IMG/VR virus record: IMGVR_UViG_3300045988_088999
Location: 48,961-112,960 of that record
Length of the DNA stretch: 64,000 nt
Reading direction: 5' to 3' (one strand)
Origin: a virus
The notes under the pieces were generated by a model. It had not been told where the DNA came from and did no database searches. It saw only the letters and a program-made list of their open reading frames with translations. This document shows, in pieces, positions 10,239-61,385 of the stretch (its first letter is position 1; every line of letters begins with the position of its first letter). A program made the position numbers and the translations under genes.

Positions 10239-10267
10239 ATTATACCATACTAGACGCAGAAACGCAA
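10239..10267 (-). promoter_or_regulatory. sigma70-type promoter P1 (-35 TTGCGT, 17 nt, -10 TATAAT)
   Basis: Reverse complement reads cccTTGCGT-N17-TATAATatag. Member of the 13-copy conserved promoter family. Confidence 0.6.
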
Positions 10268-10289
10268 GGGATTCTTTGTGAACAATTTG

Positions 10290-10487
10290 TTAACTGTCGA
10301 TATTGACAACAACCTGTTTGGCCTCTTTGTCGAAGTGTACACGGCCACTCCAACGGCTCAGATGGTATCGTGTGCCGCCTAAATTGAACACAACAGGCCA
10401 ATCCTCAAGCGGCAGAGTATCGCCATAATCAGCCGCTTCTTCCTGCAAATCGACACACAAATCGTTAAAACTGATACCCATTCTCAC
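10290..10487 (-). CDS. small hypothetical protein
   Basis: ORF of 65 aa. Confidence 0.4.
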   Translation of the reverse strand: MRMGISFNDLCVDLQEEAADYGDTLPLEDWPVVFNLGGTRYHLSRWSGRVHFDKEAKQVVVNIDS

Positions 10488-11518
10488 TTAACCTCCGAGT
10501 TATCTAAAACAAACCGATTCTTTGTAGTACAGACAAAAGTTGCTGGAATAATATTCTGCTGAAGCTCAATGTTAATATCAGAAATATTATTGATTTCCTC
10601 AATAGCATCATTGATAGACTTGTTAGAATTTCGGTTAGTTGTAGCCATCATCTTAGCAAGTTCATTGCCATCATAAGCAGTATAAGTCCACTTTTGTTCA
10701 CCTTCTGGTTTATATGCCAGCATAATCTCATATAGTCTAGCAGAATACTTATGCGTAAAGTGCATAACAGTATTTGCGTTATAGTCAATCTGGCTAGTCA
10801 TATTACAATAGCTTGCGAACAAAGGGTTTAACTGAATACCAACAATCCTATCAGCACCAATTACAGGCTTATCAACGATACCATGTAATTCATATTCTTT
10901 TCCGGCGCTTGTCATAATAGGAATACGCTTGCAAGCAAGTTCCAGTAATGCGTTAATTGCGCTCCTATTTGATTGACCGCCACGGGAAGTAATGACGTGT
11001 GCGAGGTAGTCATCTAAAGAGAAATGAATTGTCAACATACCGGCATCACCGTTATATCGAAACTCGTTTGTTTTCATAAGAACGTACATGAAAGCCCTTT
11101 GTTCAACTGTGCTAAAGCTATATCGAGAGTTCTTGATAAACCGCTTACTAAGAGTAATTCTCTTTTCGTAAATCTTAGCACGGTCAAATCTAGTCCATCC
11201 GGGGTGATACTGGTTGTGTCGTTTAATCAATTCTTTAGCCTGATATTGTTGAATGATAGTAAGACTTTCGCATCGTATATTTAATACAGGCGAATGTTCA
11301 TTGATTAGATAGCGTTCAACAAGCGCAGACTTAGCTTCGGAATCTAATTCAACAAAGTAAACAGTGGACTCCTTCAATTCTTTTAGATGCTCTCTGCTGA
11401 TATTGTCACTAGGGTCGGATTCATGCTTATTGATTCTATCTCTTAGATTAGAATTGCACTTTCCGACATATAACCACGGATGAAGTGGATGAATATATCT
11501 ATATACGTAATATCCCAT
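10484..11518 (-). CDS. GIY-YIG-like N-terminal domain protein (possible free-standing homing endonuclease)
   Basis: N-terminus YVYRYIHPLHPWLYVGKCNSNLRDRINKH resembles GIY-(10)-YIG...R...H. Long C-terminal region of unknown fold. Confidence 0.4.
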   Translation of the reverse strand: MGYYVYRYIHPLHPWLYVGKCNSNLRDRINKHESDPSDNISREHLKELKESTVYFVELDSEAKSALVERYLINEHSPVLNIRCESLTIIQQYQAKELIKRHNQYHPGWTRFDRAKIYEKRITLSKRFIKNSRYSFSTVEQRAFMYVLMKTNEFRYNGDAGMLTIHFSLDDYLAHVITSRGGQSNRSAINALLELACKRIPIMTSAGKEYELHGIVDKPVIGADRIVGIQLNPLFASYCNMTSQIDYNANTVMHFTHKYSARLYEIMLAYKPEGEQKWTYTAYDGNELAKMMATTNRNSNKSINDAIEEINNISDINIELQQNIIPATFVCTTKNRFVLDNSEVK

Positions 11519-11759
11519 TAGCCCTCCTTTGCTACCGATAGAACAAGCACTGCATACCCGTTATCTTCACCAGAAGTTATCAACCAGCTAGTGATAAACA
11601 CAAGGTTGCCGAAGAAATACTTTGCCTCAGAAACTGGCATTTTACACTCAAATAAAAAGCAAGGTACATTAGTATTGTTACTTTTTACATTTACTCTTAT
11701 AATAGAGTATTCTTCTATGAGGCCCAAGTCCTCAAAGGTTTGAATAGCCTCATTTAATA

Positions 11760-12152
11760 TCATCTGTTTCCCTCACTTATAGTTGTGATTTCTGGTTCAT
11801 TATATCTTAGACACGTTTTAAAATATTCAAGGAATCGCTTATGCACATACATATCATGAATAAAAGCATTTTTAGGGATATAATGTGTATTATATGCAAT
11901 TATTCTTTTGCTTACAACATAAGTAGTTCCAGATTTATTCCTCTCAGTTGTAAGATATGGAATATATAAAGTCGTACCCAGTAGACTAGAAAAATCATAT
12001 ACTATAGTTGCAATATCACCATTTTCTTGGTCGATTATCTTGTACACATCATCAAATTTTGAAGTAAACTTTTTCTGTTCACGGAATGTATGTCCATCAT
12101 GCTCATCAACAGAAAAATCAAATTTATTAAAAATGTCAGGAAATGGCATCAT
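11760..12152 (-). CDS. hypothetical protein (tandem paralog of 12161-12580)
   Basis: Shared C-terminal block IH(D/Q)M..H..F(L/M).YF....(R/K)N.PE. Confidence 0.5.
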   Translation of the reverse strand: MMPFPDIFNKFDFSVDEHDGHTFREQKKFTSKFDDVYKIIDQENGDIATIVYDFSSLLGTTLYIPYLTTERNKSGTTYVVSKRIIAYNTHYIPKNAFIHDMYVHKRFLEYFKTCLRYNEPEITTISEGNR

Positions 12153-12160
12153 TACCTCCG

Positions 12161-12580: not shown

Positions 12581-12864
12581 ATACGCTTATTAGATGTTGG
12601 GCCAAAACAAGACTCACGCTCTTTAAAACCGTACTTGGACAAGTCGCCATCGGAATCGGTTATACATACGTGAATTGCATTTTTATCAATAATTGTATAC
12701 ATGTTACCGTGTTTGAGAGGTCTATTATCATACTCACAGTATGGAAGCCAACCTTTTCTGAATCCTTTGTTAGCATCATATACTTCGTTATCGAAGTAGT
12801 TTTCGATAATCACACTATCCATTGGAACTGTATAACAAAGAACTCCTCTTACGATATTATTCAT
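12559..12864 (-). CDS. hypothetical protein
   Basis: ORF of 101 aa. Confidence 0.45.
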   Translation of the reverse strand: MNNIVRGVLCYTVPMDSVIIENYFDNEVYDANKGFRKGWLPYCEYDNRPLKHGNMYTIIDKNAIHVCITDSDGDLSKYGFKERESCFGPTSNKRIWVNTEV

Positions 12865-14327
12865 AAAATACTACCACCACTTAAATTAAATAATTCGGAT
12901 GCTTTTGCATACAGGGCATCATGTTTATTCTCGATTAAATCTAAGAAATACAGATGCAAAAGATGGTTTAAAGTTTTACGGATGCGGATACCTTCAAAGC
13001 CAATTTCCATAAGGTCATCTCCGTTAATGTCAAGGTCTTTTACAGTGAATACATTTTCGTCCTTAACATCATAGAAGATGCTCATAGAGTCGTAGCATTG
13101 TTCCCAACTGTTTGAATAGCAAGCAGGAATATTACTCTGCATCAGCATCAAATCAAGCATACGTTCTGTATCTTCTTTACCAAGTTTGTTGATAAGAACG
13201 CGCATCTTATATTTGCTCGTAGGGACAAATTCAAAAGACTGCTTGATGATACGACACACAGACTCCATAGTAGCGTTGTCGAACTTTAGGTCTTTCATGA
13301 CGTTATGTGCGATAGCACTTGCCGCAGTTGCAATTTCTTCCAAGGTCAGATGCTTGCGAATTTCGCTTTCAAACATTGTGAGATTACGGAACAGTAACGC
13401 ATAAGAAGTAATCTTATCGCGGTGATTATCACCTTCAATAAATTCATGCGCAATATCTGTATAAAGGTCGAAGCGACTCGGATTTTCTGTATATGAGATA
13501 TTTCCTGTTAGATTATTAAGTTCTGGGATAATTTCTACAAGAATATCGCTAAACTTCATCATAATATCACCGAACTTATATGTTGTAATCATCTTATCAA
13601 GTTCTGCGCGGATTCTCTCTTTAGATACACATTCCAGTTTCTTTTTGCAGACACGCATACCATAGGCCGTGTCTTCGTCAATATTGTAACCAAAGACACA
13701 AGCAAATCGCATAGCACGAAGAATCCGCAAGCCATCCTCTTGAAATCTAAGAACAGGATTGCCAACACATACAATCTTCTCTGCATGGAGACACCAGAAA
13801 CCGTTGTAGGGGTCAACAAAGCCGCGTTCTTTATTATACGCAATAGCGTTAATACTAAAATCACGTCTGCTTAAATCTTCCTCAATGGTTTTAGCGAACT
13901 TTACGCTGTCTGGATGCCGACCGTCAGAATAATCACCATCAATGCGGAACGTGGTAATTTCATACCCTACGCTATCAATCATAACAGTGACAGTACCATG
14001 TTTGATGCCAGTTTCGATAATCTGCTCATTGTTGAATACAGATTCAATCTGCTCCGGTGTTGCAGACGTGGTAATGTCAAAATCTTTTGGAGTTCTCATC
14101 CGAAGCATATCTCTGACACAACCACCTACAAGATATGCTTCATGTCCTGCATTAGATAAAGAATCTAACAAAAACATAGCGGTATTGAATCGCTTATCCT
14201 TCTCAATTTGTGCCAAACAACGCTTCTGGAACGATTCAGAAATAGCATAATTATTGCTATTTAATTTTCTACTCGTAAATCCCTCAACAGGGATAGTATT
14301 AGGTAGCTCCTGTGTTCTAAAACTCAT
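12861..14327 (-). CDS. cca: tRNA nucleotidyltransferase (CCA-adding enzyme / poly(A) polymerase family)
   Basis: YLVGGCVRDMLRMRTPKDFDITT...GTVTV...YEITTFRIDGDYSDGRHP...EEDLSRRDFSINAIA matches the class II head-domain signature GG.VRD...D.D...RRDFTINA. Confidence 0.85.
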   Translation of the reverse strand: MSFRTQELPNTIPVEGFTSRKLNSNNYAISESFQKRCLAQIEKDKRFNTAMFLLDSLSNAGHEAYLVGGCVRDMLRMRTPKDFDITTSATPEQIESVFNNEQIIETGIKHGTVTVMIDSVGYEITTFRIDGDYSDGRHPDSVKFAKTIEEDLSRRDFSINAIAYNKERGFVDPYNGFWCLHAEKIVCVGNPVLRFQEDGLRILRAMRFACVFGYNIDEDTAYGMRVCKKKLECVSKERIRAELDKMITTYKFGDIMMKFSDILVEIIPELNNLTGNISYTENPSRFDLYTDIAHEFIEGDNHRDKITSYALLFRNLTMFESEIRKHLTLEEIATAASAIAHNVMKDLKFDNATMESVCRIIKQSFEFVPTSKYKMRVLINKLGKEDTERMLDLMLMQSNIPACYSNSWEQCYDSMSIFYDVKDENVFTVKDLDINGDDLMEIGFEGIRIRKTLNHLLHLYFLDLIENKHDALYAKASELFNLSGGSIL

Positions 14328-14618: not shown

Positions 14619-14634
14619 TGTTACATTATTCCTT

Positions 14635-14784: not shown

Positions 14785-14798
14785 TTTTAGATTCCTCC

Positions 14799-15104
14799 TT
14801 AGATACCGTGTTCTTCCATATACGTATTTGTGATGGAATATATTACACGTGCAAATCTAATTGCAGTATCACGCTCACAAACATCCGTGAGCAGTCCGAT
14901 AAGTAATGTCTTTACATTATCAAAACCGAATCCTGCAAGCGTGAATTTGATACCAACATAAACGATGTTTCTTACAAATGTAAGCTCAAGCCCTCTATTG
15001 ATATGATTCTTTACAACAAATTTTCTAATCGCATCGGCAACCATTTCATCACGAAGAATTTCTCCTGCGACCATTATTTGATTGATTTCCATAATATCCA
15101 CCAC
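14799..15104 (-). CDS. hypothetical protein
   Basis: First gene downstream of promoter P2. Confidence 0.5.
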   Translation of the reverse strand: MVDIMEINQIMVAGEILRDEMVADAIRKFVVKNHINRGLELTFVRNIVYVGIKFTLAGFGFDNVKTLLIGLLTDVCERDTAIRFARVIYSITNTYMEEHGI

Positions 15105-15115
15105 CTTACACCTAT

Positions 15116-15144
15116 ATTATACCAAAGAAAATCGGATTTGTCAA
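15116..15144 (-). promoter_or_regulatory. sigma70-type promoter P2 (TTGACA-17-TATAAT)
   Basis: Reverse complement reads gggcTTGACA-N17-TATAATataggtg. Confidence 0.65.
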
Positions 15145-15198
15145 GCCCTTTACGAAAAAACACTATGGTAAAATTTACCATAGTGTTGTATGTAACAG

Positions 15199-16053: not shown

Positions 16054-16065
16054 CTCGACACCTCC

Positions 16066-21700: not shown

Positions 21701-21913
21701 TCACTCTGTATCAATCACGATTGTTCCGTCAAAACCTTCGTAAATGATAGCGTCACTGAGCTTACACGTTGCAAGCTCTTGTACTCGAACAGATTTCTTT
21801 CCACAGCAAGGACATTCATAATAATGATGTTTGCCAGTCTCGATTGTGATTTCCTGCTCAGGATTATCTTTTGCAAGTTTCTGTAATTTATCAATAACTT
21901 TATAAACTTTCAT
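21701..21913 (-). CDS. small zinc-binding protein
   Basis: CPCCGKK...C. Confidence 0.45.
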   Translation of the reverse strand: MKVYKVIDKLQKLAKDNPEQEITIETGKHHYYECPCCGKKSVRVQELATCKLSDAIIYEGFDGTIVIDTE

Positions 21914-22967
21914 ACACTATTCCATCCGATTCATCAGAGTACATATAGTTGTGCGCATAGTCAATTTCAGTTTTCCAAATTTTGAGGTAGTCGTCGATTG
22001 GGATTCCCCAACAATAAATGTCATCGTCGTTATAGTGTTCAAGCCCATAGTCGGCGACATATTTAATAATCTCGTGACGAGTCTCACGCATCAACTTCAA
22101 GGTATCATCGTTCGTAGCACCGTTACGACCAGCAAGTTCTTGATAGTAAATCGCTTCGTTGAGCTGTTCCAAGTCACTTTTCAGTTTTGCTTCTGCGGCA
22201 TCTGTGTTATCCATATTTTTCGCACAATGTTTTTTAGCTTCGGCTCTACAATTTTCTAGCTCTTTTGCAAGTTGTGCGTTTTCTTTTTTGTACTGACTTA
22301 CTTTCTTGTAAGCACGATTTAAAGCATCTGCATAATTTACTTTGTTTTCTACTGCTGAAGTTGTAGATGTAAGTATTGTATCTGTATCACTTACAGACTT
22401 ACTCGCCGTTTCCGCCTTGTAGTTCTCGTCGAAGTCACCATTGATTTTAGCAAAATTCTTAATACCTTCAATATCTGTGACAGAAACGGAATTATTCTTA
22501 ATAAACGTCTCTATATCTGCAAGCATTTTAGAGAAGATACTACCGTATGTGTCTCTGGTTTTACATACAAGGTTGCTATATAAAGAAGTTGATACACATT
22601 TATCAATCGAGTCGAGAGTATTTGCGAGTTCTTTACAGTATACCGTATAGAAGCGTTCAAACTGTTTCAATTCGTATTTTGTAAGATAGTCATTAATTTT
22701 TGACATATATCTACTGACGATACTATTGACAATGACGCTGTGATTTACGCATTTGTTATACGATTCTCGTTTGGCGTGTTCTTTTGCGTTAGCGCTCATC
22801 TCGCGTTCAACTTTGGTAACATATAGCGAGTACCTTTCTTCTGCTTCGTCCTCGTGCGCATCGTCATACCAAGTATTTTCGCATAAATCAACAATGAGTA
22901 CACAAGCTAATATTACTACAATGAGAATTATTGCAAATCCACATATCATAAATTTTAAACCGACCAT
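21900..22967 (-). CDS. membrane-anchored coiled-coil protein
   Basis: N-terminal TM helix, then long helical/coiled regions. First gene downstream of promoter P3. Confidence 0.5.
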   Translation of the reverse strand: MVGLKFMICGFAIILIVVILACVLIVDLCENTWYDDAHEDEAEERYSLYVTKVEREMSANAKEHAKRESYNKCVNHSVIVNSIVSRYMSKINDYLTKYELKQFERFYTVYCKELANTLDSIDKCVSTSLYSNLVCKTRDTYGSIFSKMLADIETFIKNNSVSVTDIEGIKNFAKINGDFDENYKAETASKSVSDTDTILTSTTSAVENKVNYADALNRAYKKVSQYKKENAQLAKELENCRAEAKKHCAKNMDNTDAAEAKLKSDLEQLNEAIYYQELAGRNGATNDDTLKLMRETRHEIIKYVADYGLEHYNDDDIYCWGIPIDDYLKIWKTEIDYAHNYMYSDESDGIVYESL

Positions 22968-23004
22968 AAATGCCTCCGCTATCGTGCATCCTTCTTACAC
23001 CTAT

Positions 23005-23033
23005 ATTATACCATAGAAAACAATGAAAGTCAA
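23005..23033 (-). promoter_or_regulatory. sigma70-type promoter P3 (TTGACT-17-TATAAT)
   Basis: Reverse complement reads cccTTGACT-N17-TATAATataggtg. Confidence 0.65.
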
Positions 23034-23081
23034 GGGAAATCTAAAGAAAAAGACTGGAAATTTCCTCCAGTCTTACAACTA

Positions 23082-26066: not shown

Positions 26067-26486
26067 TTAGATTAAATTACCAAGGTCTAAAAAACTATAC
26101 ATCGAAAGTGAAAACACAATCTGTGCTATATGGGCCATTTGGTCTGTTGATAAACTAATTTCCAGTTTGTTGGCTTTGCTGTTATCAATAATCATGTGGG
26201 TCACTGTATTAAATACTATACACAATACATATACCCATAAAGCATCCAAATATCCATTTGCGTAATAAGAATATAATGAAATTATTAACAACGGTATATG
26301 CGTTGTAAAAGACCAAGAAAAGGAATGTTCAAAAAGTGCGAACACCCAATCATGCTCATATAACTTGTCTGGATAATTCTTCTTCCGCCAAGACTTCTGC
26401 TTTAAGTCTCCGAGAAATCCTTGCAAATGAAAGTCGTCAATCAGATGTAGATAGAACATAATGAAGAACATAATTATATATTTCAT
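26067..26486 (-). CDS. membrane protein
   Basis: Hydrophobic helices. Confidence 0.45.
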   Translation of the reverse strand: MKYIIMFFIMFYLHLIDDFHLQGFLGDLKQKSWRKKNYPDKLYEHDWVFALFEHSFSWSFTTHIPLLIISLYSYYANGYLDALWVYVLCIVFNTVTHMIIDNSKANKLEISLSTDQMAHIAQIVFSLSMYSFLDLGNLI

Positions 26487-26764
26487 TCAAAGTCTTCCTT
26501 TTCAAAACCATCTTTGTCTACTTGACCGCTTAATATAAACCACTTAATCATATTATATGTCGCATCAATAGTCCAACCAATCACTGTTGAAATAATAAGG
26601 TATGGCAACCAAAAGATAACAAAAAAGGAAATGACTACATCCTCTTTTATCCCATCATATTGCCATAGTCCGTATTCGGTATAAATATCTGGAAAGCATT
26701 CGAGAAAGTACATTGAACCGACTCCAACATATAGTATAAGTAATAACGGCACTAACCCGAACAT
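26483..26764 (-). CDS. membrane protein
   Basis: First gene downstream of promoter P4. Confidence 0.45.
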   Translation of the reverse strand: MFGLVPLLLILYVGVGSMYFLECFPDIYTEYGLWQYDGIKEDVVISFFVIFWLPYLIISTVIGWTIDATYNMIKWFILSGQVDKDGFEKEDFE

Positions 26765-26792
26765 ATCAATCTAACCTCCATTCCATAACTAT

Positions 26793-26821
26793 ATTATAGC
26801 AAAAATACCCGGAAAAGTCAA
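26793..26821 (-). promoter_or_regulatory. sigma70-type promoter P4 (TTGACT-17-TATAAT), -35 region inside an inverted repeat cccggaaa...tttccggg
   Basis: Reverse complement reads cccTTGACT-N17-TATAATatag. Confidence 0.65.
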
Positions 26822-26847
26822 GGGCTTTCCGGGTAAAATTTTTAATA

Positions 26848-30925: not shown

Positions 30926-31858
30926 CTACACCTCGTCTTCGATAAGTGGAATATTCTCAGGATTTACATTGTTCCACTTTTTATTGTCGTAGCTCCTCCA
31001 TTGGAATTTGCCGTGAAGAGTGCGAAACTCAATATCTACTAACTTCTTTTGCTTTAACATAAAGTAGGCAATTCTACGTGCATCAGATTCCAACATACCG
31101 TCACGGACAAGTTTATTTAAAGCCTTGTCCATTTCAAGAATCGTGTACTGTTCATCAGTTAAACCAGAAACCCAGTCATATTCATGCTCAATACAGTCTT
31201 TTAATCTTACTGCATCGTCATACGTTGCGAATGTAAGACTCTTAGAAAGAGTTATGTTGTCAGACTCGTAATCACTCTTCAAAATCGGCTTCCAACTGCC
31301 CTTATCAATCTCACTATATGGGCAAGACGCATATCCGACTACATCATTTCTCTTACAAATAATACCAGATTTGTACGCCGCCTTGATAGCATCAATATCT
31401 TTCAAATTCGGAGGTTCACCACCAATAAGTTCATACAGCGGTTTCCGATTGAAAGTAAACAGATGTCTACTGTCGGAAAGTTCCTTTTTAGACGGATATT
31501 TTCTCCAAGATACATTCTGAAAATACTCACGCCAAGATGCGGTATCTGTAAATAACTTTTCAGTCTTTTCGTCATATAGTCTGAACGTGATATATTCGGC
31601 AACTGCAAGATGATTAGCAACATAACAGTCTGGATATACGTCTACGATAATCCCACACTGCACAGATACTTTTCTCTCAATCGCTGCGCTAGGACTTCTT
31701 TCTACCCAATAAACAATATCATCGACTTTTACATCCTTTGCAGAGTCCTCTTTTATCTTTAGATAAGGTGTCTTAAAATCTGGATATTGTGAATTGGTGT
31801 ATGGTGATAGCCAGTATTTCGTATAGTCTGTGCTGGCCTGACACTCTGTTAGTTTCAT
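30926..31858 (-). CDS. hypothetical protein (310 aa)
   Basis: First gene downstream of promoter P5. Confidence 0.5.
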   Translation of the reverse strand: MKLTECQASTDYTKYWLSPYTNSQYPDFKTPYLKIKEDSAKDVKVDDIVYWVERSPSAAIERKVSVQCGIIVDVYPDCYVANHLAVAEYITFRLYDEKTEKLFTDTASWREYFQNVSWRKYPSKKELSDSRHLFTFNRKPLYELIGGEPPNLKDIDAIKAAYKSGIICKRNDVVGYASCPYSEIDKGSWKPILKSDYESDNITLSKSLTFATYDDAVRLKDCIEHEYDWVSGLTDEQYTILEMDKALNKLVRDGMLESDARRIAYFMLKQKKLVDIEFRTLHGKFQWRSYDNKKWNNVNPENIPLIEDEV

Positions 31859-31886
31859 GTCAAACCTCCTAAAATTTACTACCTAT

Positions 31887-31915
31887 ATTATAACAGAAAC
31901 CCCTTGATTTGTCAA
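31887..31915 (-). promoter_or_regulatory. sigma70-type promoter P5 (TTGACA-17-TATAAT), -35 embedded in the palindrome aaccccttga/tcaaggggtt
   Basis: Reverse complement reads aaccccTTGACAaatcaaggggtttctgtTATAATatagg. Confidence 0.65.
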
Positions 31916-31932
31916 GGGGTTTCAGAAAATTT

Positions 31933-32304
31933 TTAGATATTCACAGGGTACTTTTCCTTGAGCTGACCTAATAGCGTCTCATAGACAGCTCTGGCCTCCG
32001 GGGACAATTCCTCGATGGATTTCTTTACAGCCTCCGGGGAGCGTCTCTGGGTGGCTCTAGTGGCCTTTTGCTGAAGCACATAGCCTTCAAGTTCCCAAAG
32101 TTTGTTCTCAACGTGTTCACGGCAAATCTTTCGACCAACATCTAAGTCAAAATTCTTTGGGTCAACACATGCACTTGATTCAACAATCACAAAACCATTT
32201 GTAAACTTATAAGCACAGATTAGGCATTTTTCAAATACAACAATTTCTTTTACTTCTGCTGTATCTAAAAGTTCATTTATATATTCCTGTGTTACTGTCA
32301 TCAT
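31933..32304 (-). CDS. hypothetical protein
   Basis: ORF of 123 aa. Confidence 0.4.
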   Translation of the reverse strand: MMTVTQEYINELLDTAEVKEIVVFEKCLICAYKFTNGFVIVESSACVDPKNFDLDVGRKICREHVENKLWELEGYVLQQKATRATQRRSPEAVKKSIEELSPEARAVYETLLGQLKEKYPVNI

Positions 32305-44335: not shown

Positions 44336-44377
44336 GTAAATTACCTCTTATGTATATAGAATAAATCGAACAACTAT

Positions 44378-44406
44378 ATTATATCAAATTTTTTGAAATT
44401 TGTCAA
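44378..44406 (-). promoter_or_regulatory. sigma70-type promoter P6 (TTGACA-17-TATAAT)
   Basis: Reverse complement reads ccacTTGACA-N17-TATAATatag. Confidence 0.65.
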
Positions 44407-45092
44407 GTGGTTTTTGAAAATAATTTTTCAGTTTTGTAGACTCGGCCTTGCCGCACATCTACCTGTCTTGCAATCTGCTTAGACCAAACACAAGCAAAAT
44501 CATTAGGAGCAGTCTCTTCGCTTACAAGAACAGTACACCTTTTTGAAAGCTCTCTGACATACTCCCAAAACGCTTCATGGTCAAAATCACCAGTAGAATA
44601 TCCAGTAGTTCCTTTATATGGTGGGTCTAAATACACGACCGAACCATTCGGGATTGATACATCTCGATAATCGCCACATAAGAACTCTGCATTCTTTAAA
44701 CCGTTTAGGTCACGATAAATACTGTGACTTGCACCAGCACAAAAATCTTCGCCGCGTTTATTTCTTGCAAGACCGCCAAACCACTTACCGGAATAACTAC
44801 ACGCAAAACCAACATATCCGGTCAATCCGGGGTCTTCATCTTTGTGCGCTTTCACGTAATCGTATGTTGACTTCGTGATTTTATCCGGTAACTGCCTTCC
44901 GGCCTGAACATCTCGCCACATGGCGATTAGATATGGATGCGCGTCATTAAGAATTTTGCGATTCGCATTGACACGCGACTCAATAGAACAGCTCCCGCAA
45001 AACAAAGATATAAAATCACGATTTCCTATCACTGAATTGATATAATCCGAAATGTCTTTTGCGATTCTGCTCTTACCGCCTAAATATCTCAT
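44403..45092 (-). CDS. dam: DNA N6-adenine methyltransferase (second Dam-class paralog)
   Basis: MRYLGGKSRIAKDI and catalytic DPPY. Confidence 0.7.
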   Translation of the reverse strand: MRYLGGKSRIAKDISDYINSVIGNRDFISLFCGSCSIESRVNANRKILNDAHPYLIAMWRDVQAGRQLPDKITKSTYDYVKAHKDEDPGLTGYVGFACSYSGKWFGGLARNKRGEDFCAGASHSIYRDLNGLKNAEFLCGDYRDVSIPNGSVVYLDPPYKGTTGYSTGDFDHEAFWEYVRELSKRCTVLVSEETAPNDFACVWSKQIARQVDVRQGRVYKTEKLFSKTT

Positions 45093-45459: not shown

Positions 45460-45514
45460 AATTTTTTCTCCTTTAGTTCTTTTGTTTTTGTTTTATTGCC
45501 TTTCGACTGTCTAT

Positions 45515-45543
45515 ATTATAGCATAGAAACCGGCCAAAGTCAA
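45515..45543 (-). promoter_or_regulatory. sigma70-type promoter P7 (TTGACT-17-TATAAT)
   Basis: Reverse complement reads ccccTTGACT-N17-TATAATatag. Confidence 0.65.
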
Positions 45544-45813
45544 GGGGTTTTGGAAAATTTCTTAAAGAAAAATCCGGGATGATTACTACCTAGTAGTAGT
45601 ATACCATCCCGGACTCAAGAAGTCAAGAGGTTATTCTAAATTTTTTAACTCGGAATTTATAAAGTCTATCTTCTGTTCTATAAACAACAACTGTTGGTTG
45701 TAATAGTCAGACTGATACGCTTCACAAGACTGAAGCAAACCGTTCGTCTCGTCAAGTTCTGACTGAACCCCATTTAGTTCATCTAATAGGAACTGTCGAT
45801 AATCAGATTTGCC

Positions 45814-46661: not shown

Positions 46662-46736
46662 TGGAGCGTCATATTGGAGTCGAACCAATCTAAAAGAGAT
46701 TTGCAGTCTCTCGCCTATCCGTCTGGCACATGACGC
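46662..46736 (-). tRNA. tRNA-Cys (anticodon GCA), CCA encoded
   Basis: Hand-folded cloverleaf: acceptor GCGTCAT/ATGACGC, anticodon arm AGAGA-CTGCAAA-TCTCT, T-arm ATTGG-TTCGACT-CCAAT. Confidence 0.8.
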
Positions 46737-46862
46737 ATATTTGCAATTTAGGTTTTGCGAACCACACATCGAGCATATACTCCGTTAAATCCCCTTGTGG
46801 TACAATCACTCCGAGACGGTTTTGTAACACCGTATGCTCCATTTTGTTCATCTTTACGGTCA

Positions 46863-46953
46863 TGGCGTGGTAGAAGGGATTTGAACCCCTGCACGGCCTA
46901 CGCCGCCTACTTGCTTTCCAAGCAAGCCCCTTCGACCTCTTGGGTACTACCAC
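46863..46953 (-). tRNA. tRNA-Ser (anticodon GGA), type II, CCA encoded
   Basis: Acceptor GTGGTAG/CTACCAC, anticodon arm CTTGC-TTGGAAA-GCAAG, 19-nt variable arm, T-loop TTCAAAT. Confidence 0.75.
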
Positions 46954-46956
46954 ATA

Positions 46957-47187
46957 TTATGCCTTAGTTACTAAAGGCATAACGCGAGTATCGTTGCATC
47001 CAGCGGTTTCATACCTAGTGAATACACGATATTTTCTATCAGATTTCAGAGTATCTTTATAATACTTCAAAATCCTTAAACCGTATTTACTCTTAGACGT
47101 TTTATTATTAACTTGATAATTAGCCCAGTCAATAATCTCTTTTCCAGTAAACATAGTTCCGTTTTGATAGCTCAGAATATTTTTCAT
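46957..47187 (-). CDS. small hypothetical protein (76 aa) inside the tRNA array
   Basis: GAGGT RBS; ORF flanked by tRNAs. Confidence 0.5.
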   Translation of the reverse strand: MKNILSYQNGTMFTGKEIIDWANYQVNNKTSKSKYGLRILKYYKDTLKSDRKYRVFTRYETAGCNDTRVMPLVTKA

Positions 47188-47204
47188 TTGTTACCTCACA
47201 ATAA

Positions 47205-47281
47205 TGGTGTTTCCAGAATGAATCGAACATTCGACCTCAATCTTATCAGGATTGCGCTCTAACCAACTGAGCTATGGAAAC
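47205..47281 (-). tRNA. tRNA-Ile (anticodon GAT), CCA encoded
   Basis: Canonical cloverleaf: GTTTCCA-TA-GCTC-AGTTGGTTA-GAGC-G-CAATC-CTGATAA-GATTG-AGGTC-GAATG-TTCGATT-CATTC-TGGAAAC-A-CCA. Confidence 0.9.
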
Positions 47282-47310
47282 ATAAATTGCTGTCTTTCCA
47301 GCAGTCATCG
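47282..47310. repeat. 29-nt motif ataaattgctgtctttccagcagtcat (5-bp hairpin tgctg/cagca), copy 1 of 2, immediately 5' of a tRNA
   Basis: Identical copy at 48832-48860. Confidence 0.5.
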
Positions 47311-47429
47311 GTTTATCCGCAATGTGCTTGTTCCTTAACACAAACACGGCATACTGTCATATCACGCATTTACTATATTTTTTACGCATACCAGCTACAA
47401 TAGTTGCAACTCGAAAACTACTTACCGCG

Positions 47430-47517
47430 TGGTGCGCCCGGTGGGACTTGAACCCACGATAGGAATAATCCACCCCGGATTAAAAGTCCGGTGCTATACC
47501 AACTTAGCTACGAGCGC
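47430..47517 (-). tRNA. tRNA-Lys (anticodon TTT) with an unusual 17-nt variable region
   Basis: Acceptor GCGCTCG/CGGGCGC (one G.T), anticodon arm CCGGA-CTTTTAA-TCCGG, T-arm GTGGG-TTCAAGT-CCCAC. The variable region GGTGGATTATTCCTATC is far longer than in normal Lys tRNAs. Confidence 0.6.
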
Positions 47518-47656
47518 AAATGAAAGCACGAATACCCGCCCACGTGCATGGTACTTGCTCTTCTGTCTTGTCAGTACCTCCCAAGTCCATTAACTCTATG
47601 GACACGATAGTTAAAAATACTTGCCTATACCTATTCTACCACGGCATAGGTGCGAT

Positions 47657-47744
47657 TGGAGCCAGTGACAGGACTTGAACCTGCGAGAACCCTTTCGGCA
47701 TCGGGATTACAAAACCCGCGTTCTACCAACTGAACTACACTGGC
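47657..47744 (-). tRNA. tRNA-Thr (anticodon TGT) with an unusual 17-nt variable region
   Basis: Acceptor GCCAGTG/CACTGGC, anticodon loop TTTGTAA, T-arm GCAGG-TTCAAGT-CCTGT. Variable region ATGCCGAAAGGGTTCTC. Confidence 0.6.
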
Positions 47745-47842
47745 AAATCTAAAAGACACATTAAAAATTGAACAATAAAGCTACTCAAAATTTAACAAGA
47801 GTTTGCTGGATGTGTCTTTTCATATATAAAAATAAAGGAGGG

Positions 47843-48079
47843 TTATTTTCTTACCTTCATATCTAACATAGTAAGCCTATCTTCACGCCTAAAAGAAATT
47901 ATATCATACCATCTTTCTAAGATGTATTTTAGCTGTCTAAGTTCACTCTCGTTGAACGGTTCACGTTCATCTCTTAGATATAAAGTAACAATTCCATTTT
48001 CTTCACCAATCTTTAGTCGGGAAATCTTGCTCATAATGTTATCATCAGCAACTTCACCCAACATTTGAAAGAAAACCAT
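47843..48079 (-). CDS. small hypothetical protein (78 aa) inside the tRNA array
   Basis: ORF between tRNA genes. Confidence 0.45.
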   Translation of the reverse strand: MVFFQMLGEVADDNIMSKISRLKIGEENGIVTLYLRDEREPFNESELRQLKYILERWYDIISFRREDRLTMLDMKVRK

Positions 48080-48135
48080 AGGATTATTATTATCAATCTA
48101 CTGCATCGGATTCATTCCCCTTCTTTTTTAGATTT

Positions 48136-55390: not shown

Positions 55391-55419
55391 ATAATACCAT
55401 ACTTTCACAGAAAAGTCAA
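55391..55419 (-). promoter_or_regulatory. sigma70-type promoter P11 (TTGACT-17-TATTAT)
   Basis: Reverse complement reads ccccTTGACT-N17-TATTATataggtg. Confidence 0.6.
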
Positions 55420-55778
55420 GGGGTTTTTGAATTTTTCTTCAATCTAAAGTATGATTCGTAGATAGCATTGGCTAACTGGTAAATTTTACCATAGGTAGTC
55501 CAACTAGCTAGATTTAACGTAACTACGTTACTTACGGAATTATAATTTACGTATGTATACATACTATACAAGTCAGAAATCATAATCTGCAACATACGGT
55601 TATCTACGTCAAACTCCAGTGTTATCTTATTATAATCTAAAGAATGCTTCGGATAAATGCCAGATGTAGAAAGAAGACCCAGCAATAGACTATACATATC
55701 ACCAAAGTCTTCTTTATATCTGGCCTTATCATTTAAAACACTCTTGTCGATAGCTTCAAAATGATTAGGCAAATACAT
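55416..55778 (-). CDS. hypothetical protein
   Basis: ORF of 120 aa. Confidence 0.45.
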   Translation of the reverse strand: MYLPNHFEAIDKSVLNDKARYKEDFGDMYSLLLGLLSTSGIYPKHSLDYNKITLEFDVDNRMLQIMISDLYSMYTYVNYNSVSNVVTLNLASWTTYGKIYQLANAIYESYFRLKKNSKTP

Positions 55779-55785
55779 AATTCAA

Positions 55786-56991
55786 TTACTGTTTAAACAA
55801 AGTAGCAAACATCTTAGATGCTTCACTACGAACATCGGTGTCAAGAAATACGCAAGCAAAATTAGGGCTACCCTTAAATTCGTCACACATCTTAACAAGC
55901 GGATTGCTAATAGTCTTATTGATTAGTGACTGCTTATAGTCACCAGAAAAGAAAATTCTTGAGTTCTGACCAAGCCGTGTGCCAACCAAACGCAACTGTG
56001 ATTCCGTCAAATCCTCTGCTTCATCAACGACCATAATGGTGCTATCGTAAGTAGTTCCTTTTAGATAATAAGGAATCTGTACATCAAGTACACCGCGCTG
56101 CTTCAGACTCTGCAACTCGAACTCACCGCCTTTTAACTGTTGCTCCAAAGGCTTAAAGAAATCACCAACTTTTTGCTCAAACTCTCCGGGCAAGTAACCA
56201 ACTGCGCTACCTTCGCCACGCGCTTCACGTACACCAAGAATCTTGGACTGATAGCCTTTCTCATTTACACCATACAATCCCATCTGCATAGACAAGAAGG
56301 ACTTACCGGAACCATACGTTCCTAGAATTGCAACAATGTCAATATCCTTGTTGTTTAAAGCGTCAAGCGCACATCTCTGCAAACTGTTCTTACCCTTAAT
56401 AATTCCAGACGGAGGTAGCTTTAATTCAACAAATTTTTTGCCATCAAAACGCATTTCTTTCGTTTTGCCAATCGACTTATCGTCAATTACAATATACTCA
56501 TTGGCATACAACTTCGACATATCAATAACATCCATCTGCTCATTGATTTCGTCAGTTGTGCCGCTAATCTTAATATATCCCTCGTAAATATCTTCTTTAA
56601 TGCTATTTAGCGTCTCTGTTTTTAGACAAAAGATGTTTTTCGCAATGTTATAGCAATTTACATCATCTGTAACAAAAACGACATCATCTGTTTCAGAATT
56701 TAACAGATATGCTTCTGTTGTAATAATTGCATCCGGCGTTACCTCAAGTCCTCTTGCGGCCAATTCCTTAACAATTCTGTCATAAGGGTAGTTACAAACG
56801 ATATAATTGTTCCCATCCTGAAAAGCGTGTGCCACTTTCCTTGCGCGATACCTAGTTTCATCGTCTTTCTTGCCAGATGTCTTAATGCTCTCAATTTCCT
56901 CAAGCGTTTTATGAGAACATGCAAATTTCTCAATAAATGCACTTTCACGCAGACTTAGCAGAGCATTGGTATCATAGAAAGTTAATGCCAT
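55786..56991 (-). CDS. PIN-domain + PhoH-like ATPase (YlaK-type)
   Basis: N-terminal PIN-like acidic fold (MALTFYDTNALL); P-loop ILGTYGSGKSF of PhoH-family ATPases. Confidence 0.65.
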   Translation of the reverse strand: MALTFYDTNALLSLRESAFIEKFACSHKTLEEIESIKTSGKKDDETRYRARKVAHAFQDGNNYIVCNYPYDRIVKELAARGLEVTPDAIITTEAYLLNSETDDVVFVTDDVNCYNIAKNIFCLKTETLNSIKEDIYEGYIKISGTTDEINEQMDVIDMSKLYANEYIVIDDKSIGKTKEMRFDGKKFVELKLPPSGIIKGKNSLQRCALDALNNKDIDIVAILGTYGSGKSFLSMQMGLYGVNEKGYQSKILGVREARGEGSAVGYLPGEFEQKVGDFFKPLEQQLKGGEFELQSLKQRGVLDVQIPYYLKGTTYDSTIMVVDEAEDLTESQLRLVGTRLGQNSRIFFSGDYKQSLINKTISNPLVKMCDEFKGSPNFACVFLDTDVRSEASKMFATLFKQ

Positions 56992-57040
56992 ATTTCAACC
57001 TCTTTTATATGTATTTAACCGCCATTTGGCGGTTATTTCT

Positions 57041-57946
57041 TTAATGTGCGTTTACATCACAGTTATGCACTTGCATAACCTCGTTATATATTTCGTCGCC
57101 AAGACGTTCACGCATCTTATCTTTTCCGGTATTGCCCTTACCAAACGTATAGGGAATCATGTGGTAGTTGATAAGAACTGCAATATGCAGTTTATCTTTG
57201 TCCGTAATTTCTTTCGGATAGTTCAAGAACAAAGAATCATACGCACCAACATTCTGATGACTGTAATAATGTGCGTTTCCATCAGTTGTTCCATTCATTT
57301 TAGTAAATGTCTTAGTAGCCGGTTTACCAATATCATGGACAAGAGCAGCCCACTGAACATACATATTGTATTCCTCATTCACTGCGTAACGCCACGCCTC
57401 TTTCATGTGTGCGCCAAGCGTAAACTCGTGATGCGGATTTTCCTGATTGTAATTCAAAAGGCTGTCAACAAGGTCAAACGGCTCATACGGAGCTACCAAC
57501 TTAACGCGCCGAACGGTAATTTCGTCCCATCCCTCGAAGTAGTACGGAATGTCAATTCCCTTACGCATACGCTCCATAGCAGACATGGGGACTTTCCGCT
57601 CTCGCTTCTGATTGCGCATAACGCAGACAGAATACGGAGTAGCCATAAAGACGCAATGCTTATGACACTTTACCTTCGCCATCTCGCGCAAGAATCCTTC
57701 GCGCCGTTTAGCATTGATATTCGTTGCATCATACACGACACTAAAACCGTCTTTCATTGCAGTGCGAATGCGATTATGCAGAGTGTTAAATACCAGATTA
57801 TTGTCAGTCTGGTCATTTTCATCACCAAAAAGTTCCTTGCGAATCGCATCAGAACTAAAGATGAGATACCCCTTTCCCATATACTCATTCGCTACGGTAG
57901 ACTTTCCGCTTGCCGGAAGTCCAACCAACATAACAAACTCCTGCAT
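57041..57946 (-). CDS. P-loop kinase fused to HD-domain phosphohydrolase (polynucleotide-kinase-like RNA/nucleotide repair enzyme)
   Basis: Walker A GLPASGKST at the N-terminus; HD motif AALVHDIGK plus downstream His residues at the C-terminus. Confidence 0.55.
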   Translation of the reverse strand: MQEFVMLVGLPASGKSTVANEYMGKGYLIFSSDAIRKELFGDENDQTDNNLVFNTLHNRIRTAMKDGFSVVYDATNINAKRREGFLREMAKVKCHKHCVFMATPYSVCVMRNQKRERKVPMSAMERMRKGIDIPYYFEGWDEITVRRVKLVAPYEPFDLVDSLLNYNQENPHHEFTLGAHMKEAWRYAVNEEYNMYVQWAALVHDIGKPATKTFTKMNGTTDGNAHYYSHQNVGAYDSLFLNYPKEITDKDKLHIAVLINYHMIPYTFGKGNTGKDKMRERLGDEIYNEVMQVHNCDVNAH

Positions 57947-57958
57947 ATTTATACCTCC

Positions 57959-59221: not shown

Positions 59222-59255
59222 ATAAACCCTCCCGTCAAGTATCTTTGACACCATT

Positions 59256-59284
59256 ATTATATCATAGACGCTAGGAAAAGTCAA
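59256..59284 (-). promoter_or_regulatory. sigma70-type promoter P12 (TTGACT-17-TATAAT)
   Basis: Reverse complement reads ccccTTGACT-N17-TATAATaatgg. Confidence 0.65.
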
Positions 59285-59336
59285 GGGGTTTTGCAAAATA
59301 AAAAGCGTGGATTTCTCCACGCTAAATCGTTAGATT

Positions 59337-60299
59337 TTAGAACTCGACCAAGCCATTGACTGCGGTAGCAGTGTTATTCCCAGTTGTTGCCAGTCCTTCG
59401 ATAGCCTTACGGACAACGATTCCGGTAGAACCATCCCAGCTATCACAGATAGAGTCAATGTCCTTGCCAGCCAGTGCTTCCAAAATGGAAACAACAATTT
59501 CGGCAATCTTGTTGTAGTCAGACACATGGATTGCACGTTCACCCAGAAGTTCACCAAAGCTATCATCGACAAGGCTTGTATCGTGATAACGATAACGATT
59601 AGAATAGTAGTTGCCCTGCTCGATAATCAGATGGAAAACATCCCAATCACGACTAACTGCATTCAGCAGCTCTTCGGAACTAATGCTGTCCTCTTCGATA
59701 GTAGTTCCAAATACCTTCTGAATCTGCCTACGAGTGAGTTTATCGGGACACGGCTCGTCACCCATAGTAATCAAAATACCCTTCTTATGACGCTTTTCGA
59801 TTGCATCCGCACTAACATAATTGGTTGCAAAATACCAAGGAAGTGTATAAGACTCCTGACTATTGCCACCACCCCTTCCTTCGTACCACACCTTCTGCAA
59901 AGCCTCTGCGATGCGAATGTCGCTCTCAAACTGACTTACCTGAAGCGGTGCGAGGTCATAGTCAGCATCACCAACAGCCATAAAGCAAACCTGCGGGTCG
60001 GTAATAGAACCACGATTATAAATCTCCTGCATCAGAGTATTAAGGTTCATAATAACAGAGCGCAGAACAGGCGACATAGAACCAGTGACATCCAGCGCAA
60101 TGATAATAGGCGTACTATTCGGATTATCATGGCTGTCACGAGACTCGCGGACAGTAATATTTTTCGGATTCATGTCATCCGGCATAGCGGTTGACTGATA
60201 TAGACTAGACGAGCCGCCACCAGAAACACTCGTCTTATTGCTGACATGACGAGTAGAATAACTGTCCCAGCTAGATGCGTCCCAATGCGAATATCCCAT
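59337..60299 (-). CDS. von Willebrand factor A domain protein
   Basis: MIDAS motif IIALDVTGSMSP. Confidence 0.55.
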   Translation of the reverse strand: MGYSHWDASSWDSYSTRHVSNKTSVSGGGSSSLYQSTAMPDDMNPKNITVRESRDSHDNPNSTPIIIALDVTGSMSPVLRSVIMNLNTLMQEIYNRGSITDPQVCFMAVGDADYDLAPLQVSQFESDIRIAEALQKVWYEGRGGGNSQESYTLPWYFATNYVSADAIEKRHKKGILITMGDEPCPDKLTRRQIQKVFGTTIEEDSISSEELLNAVSRDWDVFHLIIEQGNYYSNRYRYHDTSLVDDSFGELLGERAIHVSDYNKIAEIVVSILEALAGKDIDSICDSWDGSTGIVVRKAIEGLATTGNNTATAVNGLVEF

Positions 60300-60319
60300 G
60301 TTAAAGTTCTCCTTTATAA

Positions 60320-61333
60320 TTACAATTTAATTTTACCCATTTCTGGATTCATCTTAGTAAATGTGCGTTTTCCAAATGCCGCATCAAGCGACATTTCCCA
60401 TCTCTTCATTTCTGTAGGCGGGTATTCACCAGACCCGGTTCTTAGCCACATCATAATCTGGTCTGGAACTGTTGCGTCTGAAATTTTTGAAGTGCATCCA
60501 AGCAACTTAATTCCGAGCATCTTGATACATTCCATATCAGTGCTTTTCTTAGATTTCTTGTTACGCTTTGCAGATGGCGGCATTACATCATAAACCTCAC
60601 TGCTAACGCCAATCATCTTAGTGTCAACAGGACGTGTGTACCACCAACCACCATACAGCATAATTCCATGTCGCGCAATATCAACAAAGCAACTGTTAAT
60701 ATCAATTCCGTTATGAACGATATTATTGTAAGACAAGAAACATGCAAGATTAAGCAGACGTGAAATCATCCAAGCAGTATGCTTAATAGGAATCCTACCG
60801 TTAAAGTTACTCCACACCTCAGACAGAGGAACACAGCCGTATTCACGTTTGATAATAATTACGCGTTCATCGTTATTTTCAAAATTCTGAACAATATGCG
60901 GTAATGCGTAATCAATACTCTGCATCATATCTCTAGGACACGAGAATTTTGTTGAATTGATGTAATTGTCGTAATACTTTTTATGCTGTCTAGCAATTAC
61001 GTATACAACGTGATTATTACACAAATACATCTTGCCAAGTTCAAAGTTATATTCTTTTAGATACGAAACAACGAGCGTTTTGCCGTTTGGTTTAAGCAAC
61101 CGAACCTTGTTAGTTTCATCCCATTTACCTTTAGCGATAAGGTCTGTAGCTTTTTCATAAAGCATCACAATCTTTGACGTTACTTCTTGGTACGTCATTT
61201 CTCCATTGTGAAAGTCTGGATGAAACGCTTTCAGATATTCACGATACTCTGCTTTTAAGATTACAGGGTCGTTCGTGAATACATCATCAACAGACGATGC
61301 TTTTAGAACATCATCAACTGTCTTGCACTTCAC
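60320..61333 (-). CDS. J-domain (DnaJ-like) protein
   Basis: YREYLKAFHPDFH contains the HPD tripeptide in J-domain context. Confidence 0.55.
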   Translation of the reverse strand: MKCKTVDDVLKASSVDDVFTNDPVILKAEYREYLKAFHPDFHNGEMTYQEVTSKIVMLYEKATDLIAKGKWDETNKVRLLKPNGKTLVVSYLKEYNFELGKMYLCNNHVVYVIARQHKKYYDNYINSTKFSCPRDMMQSIDYALPHIVQNFENNDERVIIIKREYGCVPLSEVWSNFNGRIPIKHTAWMISRLLNLACFLSYNNIVHNGIDINSCFVDIARHGIMLYGGWWYTRPVDTKMIGVSSEVYDVMPPSAKRNKKSKKSTDMECIKMLGIKLLGCTSKISDATVPDQIMMWLRTGSGEYPPTEMKRWEMSLDAAFGKRTFTKMNPEMGKIKL

Positions 61334-61356
61334 TTTATCCCTCCGTTTCTATCATT

Positions 61357-61385
61357 ATTATACACCTAAAGGCACAGTTTGTCAA
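61357..61385 (-). promoter_or_regulatory. sigma70-type promoter P13 (TTGACA-17-TATAAT)
   Basis: Reverse complement reads ccgcTTGACA-N17-TATAATaatga. Confidence 0.65.

Follow-up and report, generated by a model that had tools for sequence, protein, structure and literature searches.

Fourteen promoter-like modules at gene junctions

The window analysed here, 64,000 nucleotides of viral DNA (positions 48,961 to 112,960 of IMG/VR virus record IMGVR_UViG_3300045988_088999), carries 14 similar modules of about 60 bp with the architecture of strong bacterial promoters. The window opens with a plus-strand gene cluster (1-8077), which has none of the modules, and continues with a minus-strand block (8.2-64 kb). 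This block encodes proteins of replication and nucleotide metabolism (a DnaE-type polymerase, a Toprim primase, a PD-(D/E)XK nuclease, ThyX, FolD, dUTPase, uracil-DNA glycosylase and two Dam methylases), a set of RNA-related genes (PhoH, adenylosuccinate synthetase, a CCA-adding enzyme, Thg1, an RNA ligase and a kinase/HD protein) and 13 tRNA genes. Its predicted gene content is of the early/replication type. A megablast search with 8 kb of the window gave no match in the phage collection and the phage was placed through its proteins only. Its DnaE is 59% identical to that of the human-faecal contig MT835481 and about 40% identical to those of large Bacillus and Clostridioides siphophages.

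Exact TTGACW-N17-TATAAT occurs nine times in the window, always on the minus strand, against 0.07 expected; allowing one mismatch adds four copies. A position matrix spanning -55..+8 was run over both strands, with 50 shuffles as control. It scored 14 sites at 34.8-58.6 bits, the next-best site reaching 11.6 and the shuffle maximum 13.2. Each promoter is named after the window position at which its -35 starts; module coordinates run from -59 to +1, and the start sites are predicted. The modules are as follows, with the TGn trinucleotide given after the hexamers.

10232-10291, minus strand: P10267; -35 TTGCGT at 10262-10267, -10 TATAAT at 10239-10244, TGg; 44.1 bits; predicted start 10232; 44-nt leader to the open reading frame (ORF) 9832-10188; kept in four relatives
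15109-15168, minus strand: P15144; TTGACA-17-TATAAT, TGg; predicted start 15109; 17-nt leader to the ATG at 15092
22998-23057, minus strand: P23033; TTGACT-17-TATAAT, TGg; 31-nt leader to ORF 21900-22967
26786-26845, minus strand: P26821; TTGACT-17-TATAAT, TGc; 22-nt leader to ORF 26483-26764
31880-31939, minus strand: P31915; TTGACA-17-TATAAT, TGt; 22-nt leader to ORF 30926-31858
44371-44430, minus strand: P44406; TTGACA-17-TATAAT, TGa; heads a 12.4-kb replication operon (AAA_24 protein, PD-(D/E)XK nuclease, Toprim primase, DnaE, dNMP kinase, dUTPase, FolD)
45508-45567, minus strand: P45543; TTGACT-17-TATAAT, TGc; downstream member of a tandem pair
45591-45650, minus strand: P45626; TTGACT-17-TATACT, TGg; weakest match (34.8 bits); kept in four relatives
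49605-49664, minus strand: P49640; TTGACA-17-TATAAT, TGg; 29 nt upstream of tRNA-Trp
51453-51512, minus strand: P51488; TTGACA-17-TAGAAT, TGa; top score (58.6 bits); directly after tRNA-Arg(cct) at 51508-51583
54972-55031, minus strand: P55007; TTGACA-17-TAAAAT, TGg; split by a 236-bp insertion in relative 127389
55384-55443, minus strand: P55419; TTGACT-17-TATTAT, TGg; stop of ORF 55416-55778 inside the -35
59249-59308, minus strand: P59284; TTGACT-17-TATAAT, TGa; 28-nt leader to the adenylosuccinate synthetase ATG at 59221
61350-61409, minus strand: P61385; TTGACA-17-TATAAT; sole copy without TG at -15/-14; 36.8 bits; 17-nt leader to the GTG at 61333

All 14 copies are oriented with the minus-strand genes downstream of them. 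The predicted leaders are 17-44 nt long and end in Shine-Dalgarno sequences and start codons or, at P49640, in tRNA-Trp. At P44406 and P55419 the TGA within the -35 TTGAC(A/T) doubles as the stop codon of the gene upstream (44403-44406 and 55416-55419, minus strand). The genes that end there are a Dam methylase (44403-45092, ...FSKTT*) and ORF 55416-55778 (...NSKTP*). Since these stop codons lie inside the -35, the upstream element and the CC(A/C)C linker of both modules also code for the last residues of the two proteins. P55419 and P55007 flank a single 107-aa ORF (55026-55349) that lacks known relatives and is present in all related phages examined.

The initial annotation of this DNA, made from the letters alone, had described 13 sigma70-type promoters with an invariant 17-nt spacer and near-perfect hexamers. 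All 13 exist where it placed them, on the minus strand; the count is 14, as it overlooked P45626, whose -35 starts at 45626, whose -10 is TATACT and which lies 83 bp upstream of the 45543 copy. The spacer is exactly 17 nt in every module. The hexamers bear out the description for the most part, with TTGAC(A/T) at -35 in 13/14 and TATAAT at -10 in 10/14 (a single mismatch in the other four), the departure being TTGCGT in the 10.2-kb copy. Every copy sits at a gene junction, in a region that is 92% coding. The placement in gaps upstream of minus-strand clusters is upheld, with two copies overlapping the last codons of the preceding gene, and so are the assignment of one copy (P8 of that annotation, here P49640) to the head of the tRNA array and the sigma-70/sigma-A-type architecture of the whole set.

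Conserved anatomy and its counterparts in gut Clostridia

Several features beyond the hexamers recur, some of which were missed at first. An A-tract followed by a T-tract occupies -55..-46 and is followed by AAAA at -43..-40. TG is found at -15/-14 in 13 copies and T at -17 in 12; together these form a Gram-positive-type TRTGn extended -10. The consensus for upstream (UP) elements of the E. coli rrnB P1 type is nnAAAWWTWTTTTnnnAAAnnn at -59..-38, and the tracts and the AAAA are nearly in register with this consensus. The UP consensus reportedly comes from the work of Estrem and Gourse, and the Gram-positive '-16 region' TRTG is said to go back to Helmann (1995) and to Voskuil and Chambliss (1998). 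The initial annotation had singled out a conserved CCCC upstream of the -35 and ATAGGTG downstream of the -10. This stands for single positions, which are strongly kept (C at -36 in 14/14, at -38 in 13/14 and at -37 in 9/14; A at -6 in 14/14, G at -3 in 13/14 and T at -1 in 13/14), and fails for the exact strings, which occur in only six and four copies, respectively. C at -36 fits the classical tcTTGACat consensus. To our knowledge a CCCC/CCYC linker at -39..-36 is absent from descriptions of E. coli and B. subtilis promoters. Positions -30..-28, after TTGAC, read AAA in seven copies and TTT in seven (one of the latter being TTGCGTTT), a class that is stable between orthologs; the copies split evenly between TTGACAAA and TTGACTTT. 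The predicted start site carries G at +1 in nine copies.

The predicted transcripts of P10267, P51488, P55419, P55007 and P49640 also resemble each other at +3..+10, beginning G/A-T-G-TTCCAAGG or -TCAAG(A/G)GG. A leader start of TTCCAAGG or TCAAGG is likewise found behind consensus promoters of unrelated phage contigs (loci L047, L073 and L014). This shared start could belong to the ribosome-binding region or to a stabiliser of the 5' end.

IMG/VR holds four close relatives of the phage (about 85-98% nucleotide identity, on contigs of up to 150 kb) together with remoter relatives, whose DnaE is 64%, 54% and about 45% identical. Their orthologous loci were fetched by protein anchors, and divergence was counted position by position, as the percentage of bases that differ, in 42 distinct ortholog sequences from the four close relatives. 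These relatives keep every promoter at the orthologous place except P55007 in one of them. In that relative (127389) a 236-bp segment with a small ORF (L123 9495-9731) lies inside P55007 (window 54990-54998); as it falls between the -35 and the leader, the promoter is destroyed. Divergence is 18% in the flanks, 3% in the UP element (-59..-47), 5% at -46..-36, 0.8% in the -35 hexamer, 15% in the spacer (-27..-18), 3% at -17..-14, 0.3% at -12..-6 and 15% at -5..+2. Positions -15/-14 show no difference at all. The low values indicate that the UP element, the linker, both hexamers, TRTG and the A at -6 are under constraint. The TAGGTG part drifts at about the rate of the spacer, for example from ATAGGTGT to ATAGATGT or ATAAGCAC, and retains only a purine-purine-pyrimidine-purine pattern. 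In the relatives with 64% and 54% DnaE identity the architecture is the same, and -39..-36 reads ACAC, TTAC, TTAG or CCGC. A scan of MT835481 for the motif gave few consensus promoters and found neither the CCCC nor the ATAGGTG context there. Dense arrays of this promoter architecture are also present in unrelated phage contigs from the same environments.

The same context is found in bacteria. The pattern AAACCCCTTGACW-N14-TGNTATAATA, searched in one genome per species, occurs at no fewer than 120 loci in species-representative bacterial genomes. Among the matches listed, about 75 of 80 titles are metagenome-assembled genomes (MAGs) of gut Clostridia (Oscillospiraceae, Ruminococcus, Eubacteriales, Clostridia). 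In the matches listed, the positions left free by the pattern have TRTG, G at +1 (71/125) and phased A/T tracts that reach back as far as -75. Of the 117 listed sites with enough downstream sequence, 43 are followed by a tRNA gene whose start lies no more than 200 nt away (median about 20 nt). According to Rfam, applied to 20 of the bacterial loci, the motif also precedes 16S rRNA (2) and the L10 leader (2). Promoters of the same loci that fall outside the search pattern have the consensus CCTC at -39..-36, with T nearly excluded at -36. By this comparison, the aaaaCCCC context appears to be a variant of what gut Clostridia use at their strongest, stable-RNA promoters. The arrangement at P49640, with tRNA-Trp at +29, matches the host type. 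At one of the bacterial loci (L146 1824-2005, a Eubacteriales MAG) two matches to the Gut-1 small RNA follow directly after a tRNA driven by the same motif.

We propose, with a probability of about 0.85, that the 14 modules are strong promoters that would be read by the RNA polymerase of the host with its primary sigma factor (sigma-A/sigma-70 family), in a large phage of gut Clostridia. The host would probably belong to Oscillospiraceae or Ruminococcus-like Clostridia. Since the likely hosts use the same context at tRNA, rRNA and ribosomal-protein promoters, the phage would be copying its host's strongest promoters, with no phage-specific signal. In this model the A-tract/T-tract UP element at -59..-47 would bind the alpha C-terminal domains. 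The proximal AAAA at -43..-40 and the CC-C linker would lead into the -35 TTGAC(A/T), the exact 17-bp spacer, the TRTGn extended -10, TATAAT and the AT-rich start of the discriminator (A at -6). Transcription is predicted to begin 7 nt after the -10 at a pyrimidine-purine step, with T at -1 and G or A at +1; the G in 9/14 may couple initiation to the GTP pool of the host. The modules would split 56 kb, read leftward, into transcription units that cover ORFs without known relatives, nucleotide metabolism, the 12.4-kb replication operon, the tRNA array and the RNA-repair genes. Six of them would also provide an intrinsic terminator for transcription arriving from upstream.

Some of the data weigh against this proposal. 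The bacterial matches were picked with AAACCCC fixed, and they show that the context exists in hosts, not how frequent it is. G at -3 is found in 13/14 copies here and in about 24% of unselected bacterial promoters; some phage-specific discriminator preference exists, although orthologs drift there. Half of the copies use TTGACTTT, which is rare in bacteria (TTGACT in 9/125 among the matches listed). A residual possibility is phage-specific regulatory information in the RRTGT discriminator or the phage-enriched TTGACTTT variant. Finally, the Pfam scan covered 43 of the roughly 110 ORFs of the window, and a phage sigma factor encoded elsewhere is possible.

Probable fused terminators and competing explanations

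Six of the 14 modules have a significant hairpin followed by a T-run (z from -3.4 to -6.2) and eight have none. Three of these predicted terminators lie immediately upstream of the promoter, two wrap the -35 and one encloses the -10 of P45626.

15159-15187, minus strand: predicted terminator upstream of P15144; 13 pairs and T6; -15.9 kcal/mol, z -5.9; T-run coincides with the UP T-tract
23050-23074, minus strand: predicted terminator upstream of P23033; -12.9 kcal/mol, z -3.4
26806-26835, minus strand: hairpin at P26821; TACCCGGAAAG/CTTTTCCGGGTA with the -35 in the loop and TTTTTG in the spacer; -15.6 kcal/mol, z -3.6
31896-31923, minus strand: hairpin at P31915; GAAACCCCTTGA-CAAA-TCAAGGGGTTTC with the -35 in the 5' arm and the T-rich spacer next; -19.5 kcal/mol, z -5.2
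45570-45616, minus strand: long hairpin and T5 between the tandem promoters, -10 of P45626 in the loop; -29.8 (also -29.2) kcal/mol, z -6.2
59304-59323, minus strand: predicted terminator upstream of P59284; -13.5 kcal/mol, z -5.8; T-run coincides with the UP T-tract

The hairpins stand on the coding strand just after a stop codon, and the intergenic gaps that hold them measure 74-115 nt. At the fused modules a gap of 74-83 nt, as short as gaps that hold a promoter only, has room for terminator, promoter and leader. The two hairpins that wrap a -35 are the palindromes that the initial annotation had reported at 26.8 and 31.9 kb, and both are present as described. The former is called a terminator by a consensus scan and its stem is kept in relatives; the latter begins 10 nt past the stop of ORF 31933-32304. 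Most likely they are intrinsic terminators fused to a promoter, to judge from their structure and position, and in our reading such fusion would have arisen under pressure for compactness. A keyword search limited to open-access text found neither a described terminator fusion with the -35 in the loop nor a Clostridia promoter consensus, which is weak evidence that neither has been described.

The modules might in addition serve as recombination cassettes, offering homology for the swapping or loss of neighbouring ORFs without relatives. T4-type phages possess such composite promoter/terminator repeats, the promoter early stem-loop elements (PeSLs), which mediate modular gene shuffling (PMC2839356, PMC4122927). 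Each PeSL consists of a strong sigma-70-like early promoter, AT-rich sequence upstream of it and a stem-loop that acts as terminator, and the elements stand at the borders of insertions and deletions (PMC2839356, PMC4122927). The modules here are likewise predicted to be strong sigma-70-like promoters with an AT-rich upstream region and, in some cases, a stem-loop; they are intergenic, lie beside ORFs without known relatives, and several of them stand at insertion, deletion or replacement borders between the close relatives. Modules account for 3.4% of the region and contain nine of the 68 homology breakpoints in the four close relatives (p = 5e-4 relative to a uniform distribution). Variable genes adjoin P10267, P15144, P23033, P26821, P31915 and P49640, and P55419 and P55007 enclose the 107-aa ORF. 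By raw count, the leading gene behind 10 promoters had no match in a PHROG scan. However, when gene junctions are the reference, the enrichment is 7/12 promoter junctions against 23/73 others (p = 0.07), and a promoter bounds a variable segment on one side only. The defining trait of PeSLs is a role in recombination, with two copies flanking a cassette and with mini-circles. Across the four relatives no two-module cassette is swapped for a single chimeric module, and none is gained or lost. The stem-loop is confined to six of the 14 modules; in PeSLs it lies upstream of the AT-rich region, unlike the two modules in which it wraps the -35. We therefore do not claim membership of the PeSLs, and regard a role in recombination as a secondary possibility with perhaps one chance in four.

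An improbable alternative, and the one first suggested for this DNA, holds that CCCC and ATAGGTG form a recognition element for a phage-encoded activator or shut-off protein, which would make the modules a phage-specific promoter class. Across the 14 copies the flanks do vary less than the spacers, G at -3 contrasts with its bacterial frequency as noted above, and C is found at -37 in 9/14 where the bacterial consensus has T. Phage proteins that act on the sigma-A holoenzyme also exist, SPO1 Gp33 being an example (PMC13401047). Yet known shut-off factors such as Gp33 and AsiA target the polymerase and not a DNA motif (PMC13401047). Between orthologs -5..+2 diverges by 15%, as does the spacer (the hexamers by 0-1%), with ATAGGTGT to ATAAGCAC among the changes. 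CCCC is absent from MT835481 and gives way to ACAC, TTAC or TTAG in relatives with 54-64% DnaE identity. The AAACCCC-TTGACA context sits before bacterial tRNA and rRNA genes, and the upstream context is shared with promoters of gut Clostridia; the suggestion of an extra phage-factor element is not borne out.

Slightly less probable still is the suggestion, also made initially, that the palindromes at 31.9 and 26.8 kb are operators at which a dimeric repressor blocks the -35. Both inverted repeats overlap the -35, the classic operator position, and both are kept in close relatives. Their stems are unrelated (CCCCTTGA and ACCCGGAAA), however, which rules out a single protein for both; no such palindrome is found at the other 12 promoters. 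Each palindrome begins 10-13 nt past the upstream stop codon and is followed by a T-run. In relative 127389 a 1-nt insertion in the loop of the 31.9-kb element is offset by a 1-nt deletion, so that the stem and the 17-bp spacer are both kept. Of 300 distinct promoters from the fetched phage loci, 8.0% have a hairpin of -12 kcal/mol or stronger around the -35, against 0.7% in a control in which upstream and spacer halves were re-paired at random (about 11-fold). The stem sequences of these hairpins are all different, unrelated phages included. The corresponding values for the bacterial loci are 2.6% and 0.3%. These data argue for predicted terminators and against operators.

Least probable is that a sigma factor or RNA polymerase encoded by the phage, and not host sigma-A, reads the motif: large Firmicutes phages often encode middle or late sigma factors, as SPO1 does (PMC13401047), and the window is part of a genome, but the motif is the canonical primary-sigma consensus common to bacterial stable-RNA promoters, a Pfam scan of 43 ORFs detected neither a sigma nor an RNA polymerase domain, and promoters for phage sigma factors normally depart from TTGACA/TATAAT, as the Kayvirus late promoter TGTTATATTA does (PMC7698491). 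The remaining intergenic gaps were inspected by eye for a second, phage-specific promoter class and showed no shared motif; no formal motif search was run.

Known systems and neighbouring features

The nearest described case is that of the early promoters of Staphylococcus Kayvirus. There, 58 early promoters mapped by RNA-seq have the form TTGACW-17-TRTGN-TATANT and depend on host sigma-70 (PMC7698491). As in Kayvirus vB_SauM-515A1, where dozens of near-consensus copies occur per genome (PMC7698491), the modules here combine TTGACW, 17 bp, TRTGN and TATANT. Kayvirus start sites lie about 6 nt after the -10 and are enriched in G (PMC7698491); here the distance predicted from the sequence is 7 nt. 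GC-rich stem-loops with poly-T delimit transcription units in Kayvirus (PMC7698491), as the predicted terminators would here. The two systems differ in that the Kayvirus promoters were mapped by RNA-seq and those described here are predicted from sequence. Kayvirus is a Herelleviridae myovirus and the phage studied here is a DnaE-encoding phage of gut Clostridia, and the class of host differs too. In addition, the UP element is sharply defined here (the Kayvirus authors could not define one), the CC-C linker is present, and some promoters are fused to terminators.

The modules also resemble bacterial rRNA and tRNA promoters. Both have a distal A-tract/T-tract and a proximal AAAA subsite in nearly the same register, as well as TRTGnTATAAT, and in Clostridia genomes the same context precedes tRNA, 16S rRNA and L10-leader genes. 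Unlike those promoters, the present copies are phage-borne.

The strategy is ordinary, since many consensus host-type promoters at the start of infection are already known in large virulent phages of Firmicutes and E. coli. Early genes of T5 and T4 follow this principle, being read from promoters for the host polymerase. The early promoters of T5 and SPO1 are multiple, very strong, conserved beyond the hexamers and A-rich upstream, and they serve the first wave of transcription. In SPO1, the early genes rely on host sigma-A until control passes to phage factors (PMC13401047). The T5 and SPO1 cases have other hosts and another flanking consensus, and the promoters described here span replication and tRNA regions, not only a host-takeover module.

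No new regulatory principle is revealed. Two features may, in combination, go beyond textbook phage promoters: recurrent terminator-promoter fusion, and a lineage-specific stable-RNA signature copied by phages. We put this joint reading forward tentatively, at rather less than even odds. Its first part is that phages of gut Clostridia may fuse a terminator hairpin with the -35 in its loop or stem, the T-rich distal spacer acting as the U-tract; terminator, promoter and leader would then occupy about 75-85 nt. Its second part is that there may be an Oscillospiraceae/Ruminococcus-like signature of phased A5/T5 tracts, AAAACCYC-TTGACAAA, N, and TRTGnTATAATA. If this is true, the stable-RNA promoter signature could assign hosts to uncultured phages; in the present case promoter mimicry suggests the Oscillospiraceae or Ruminococcus-like Clostridia named above. 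The analysis also provides a predicted transcription-unit map, with 14 promoters and six predicted terminators, for an uncultured gut phage. The size of this phage, about 150 kb, is that of the longest related contigs. The modules would in addition supply compact, strong promoter and terminator parts for gut anaerobes that have few genetic tools.

The tRNA genes downstream of P49640 form an array.

46662-49576, minus strand: tRNA array of 12 genes, downstream of P49640
49086-49157, minus strand: further tRNA by Rfam (41 bits), not called by ARAGORN; the array may hold 13 genes, not 12

A set of genes for tRNA and RNA repair and maturation is spread over the block (12861-14327, 50137-50979, 53221-54720, 57041-57946, 61414-62220 and 62870-63991, all minus strand). 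It comprises a CCA-adding enzyme, a Thg1-like guanylyltransferase, a DUF2828/vWA protein, an AAA_33 kinase with an HD domain, an RlaP-like nucleotidyltransferase and an RNA ligase. The set may act in counter-defence against anticodon nucleases of the host.

Several genes of the block carry insertions. The Toprim primase-like gene (ORF 38845-41811, minus strand) has an in-frame insertion of about 980 bp (39674-40653) that is absent from three close relatives. It gives a weak LAGLIDADG_3 match (E = 0.004, below the Pfam cut-off) and is probably an intein with a homing endonuclease. DnaE of relatives 094428 and 101786 has a 1.36-kb insertion, and the PhoH-like gene of 094428 one of 1.1 kb; the sites correspond to window positions 37173-37178 and 56290-56305, compared with loci L103/L104 and L120. 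These insertions are probably strain-variable mobile introns, inteins or homing-endonuclease genes.

One ORF (10484-11518, minus strand) joins an N-terminal GIY-YIG nuclease to a Rep3_N domain of plasmid-type replication initiators. This unusual fusion may hint at a phage-plasmid lifestyle or a mobile element. Two SPFH/Band-7 (flotillin-like) genes lie at 8442-9296 and 51630-53162 (minus strand). Between the convergent plus-strand (1-8077) and minus-strand clusters, a hairpin with a 14-bp stem and T-runs (8082-8116) is probably a bidirectional terminator.

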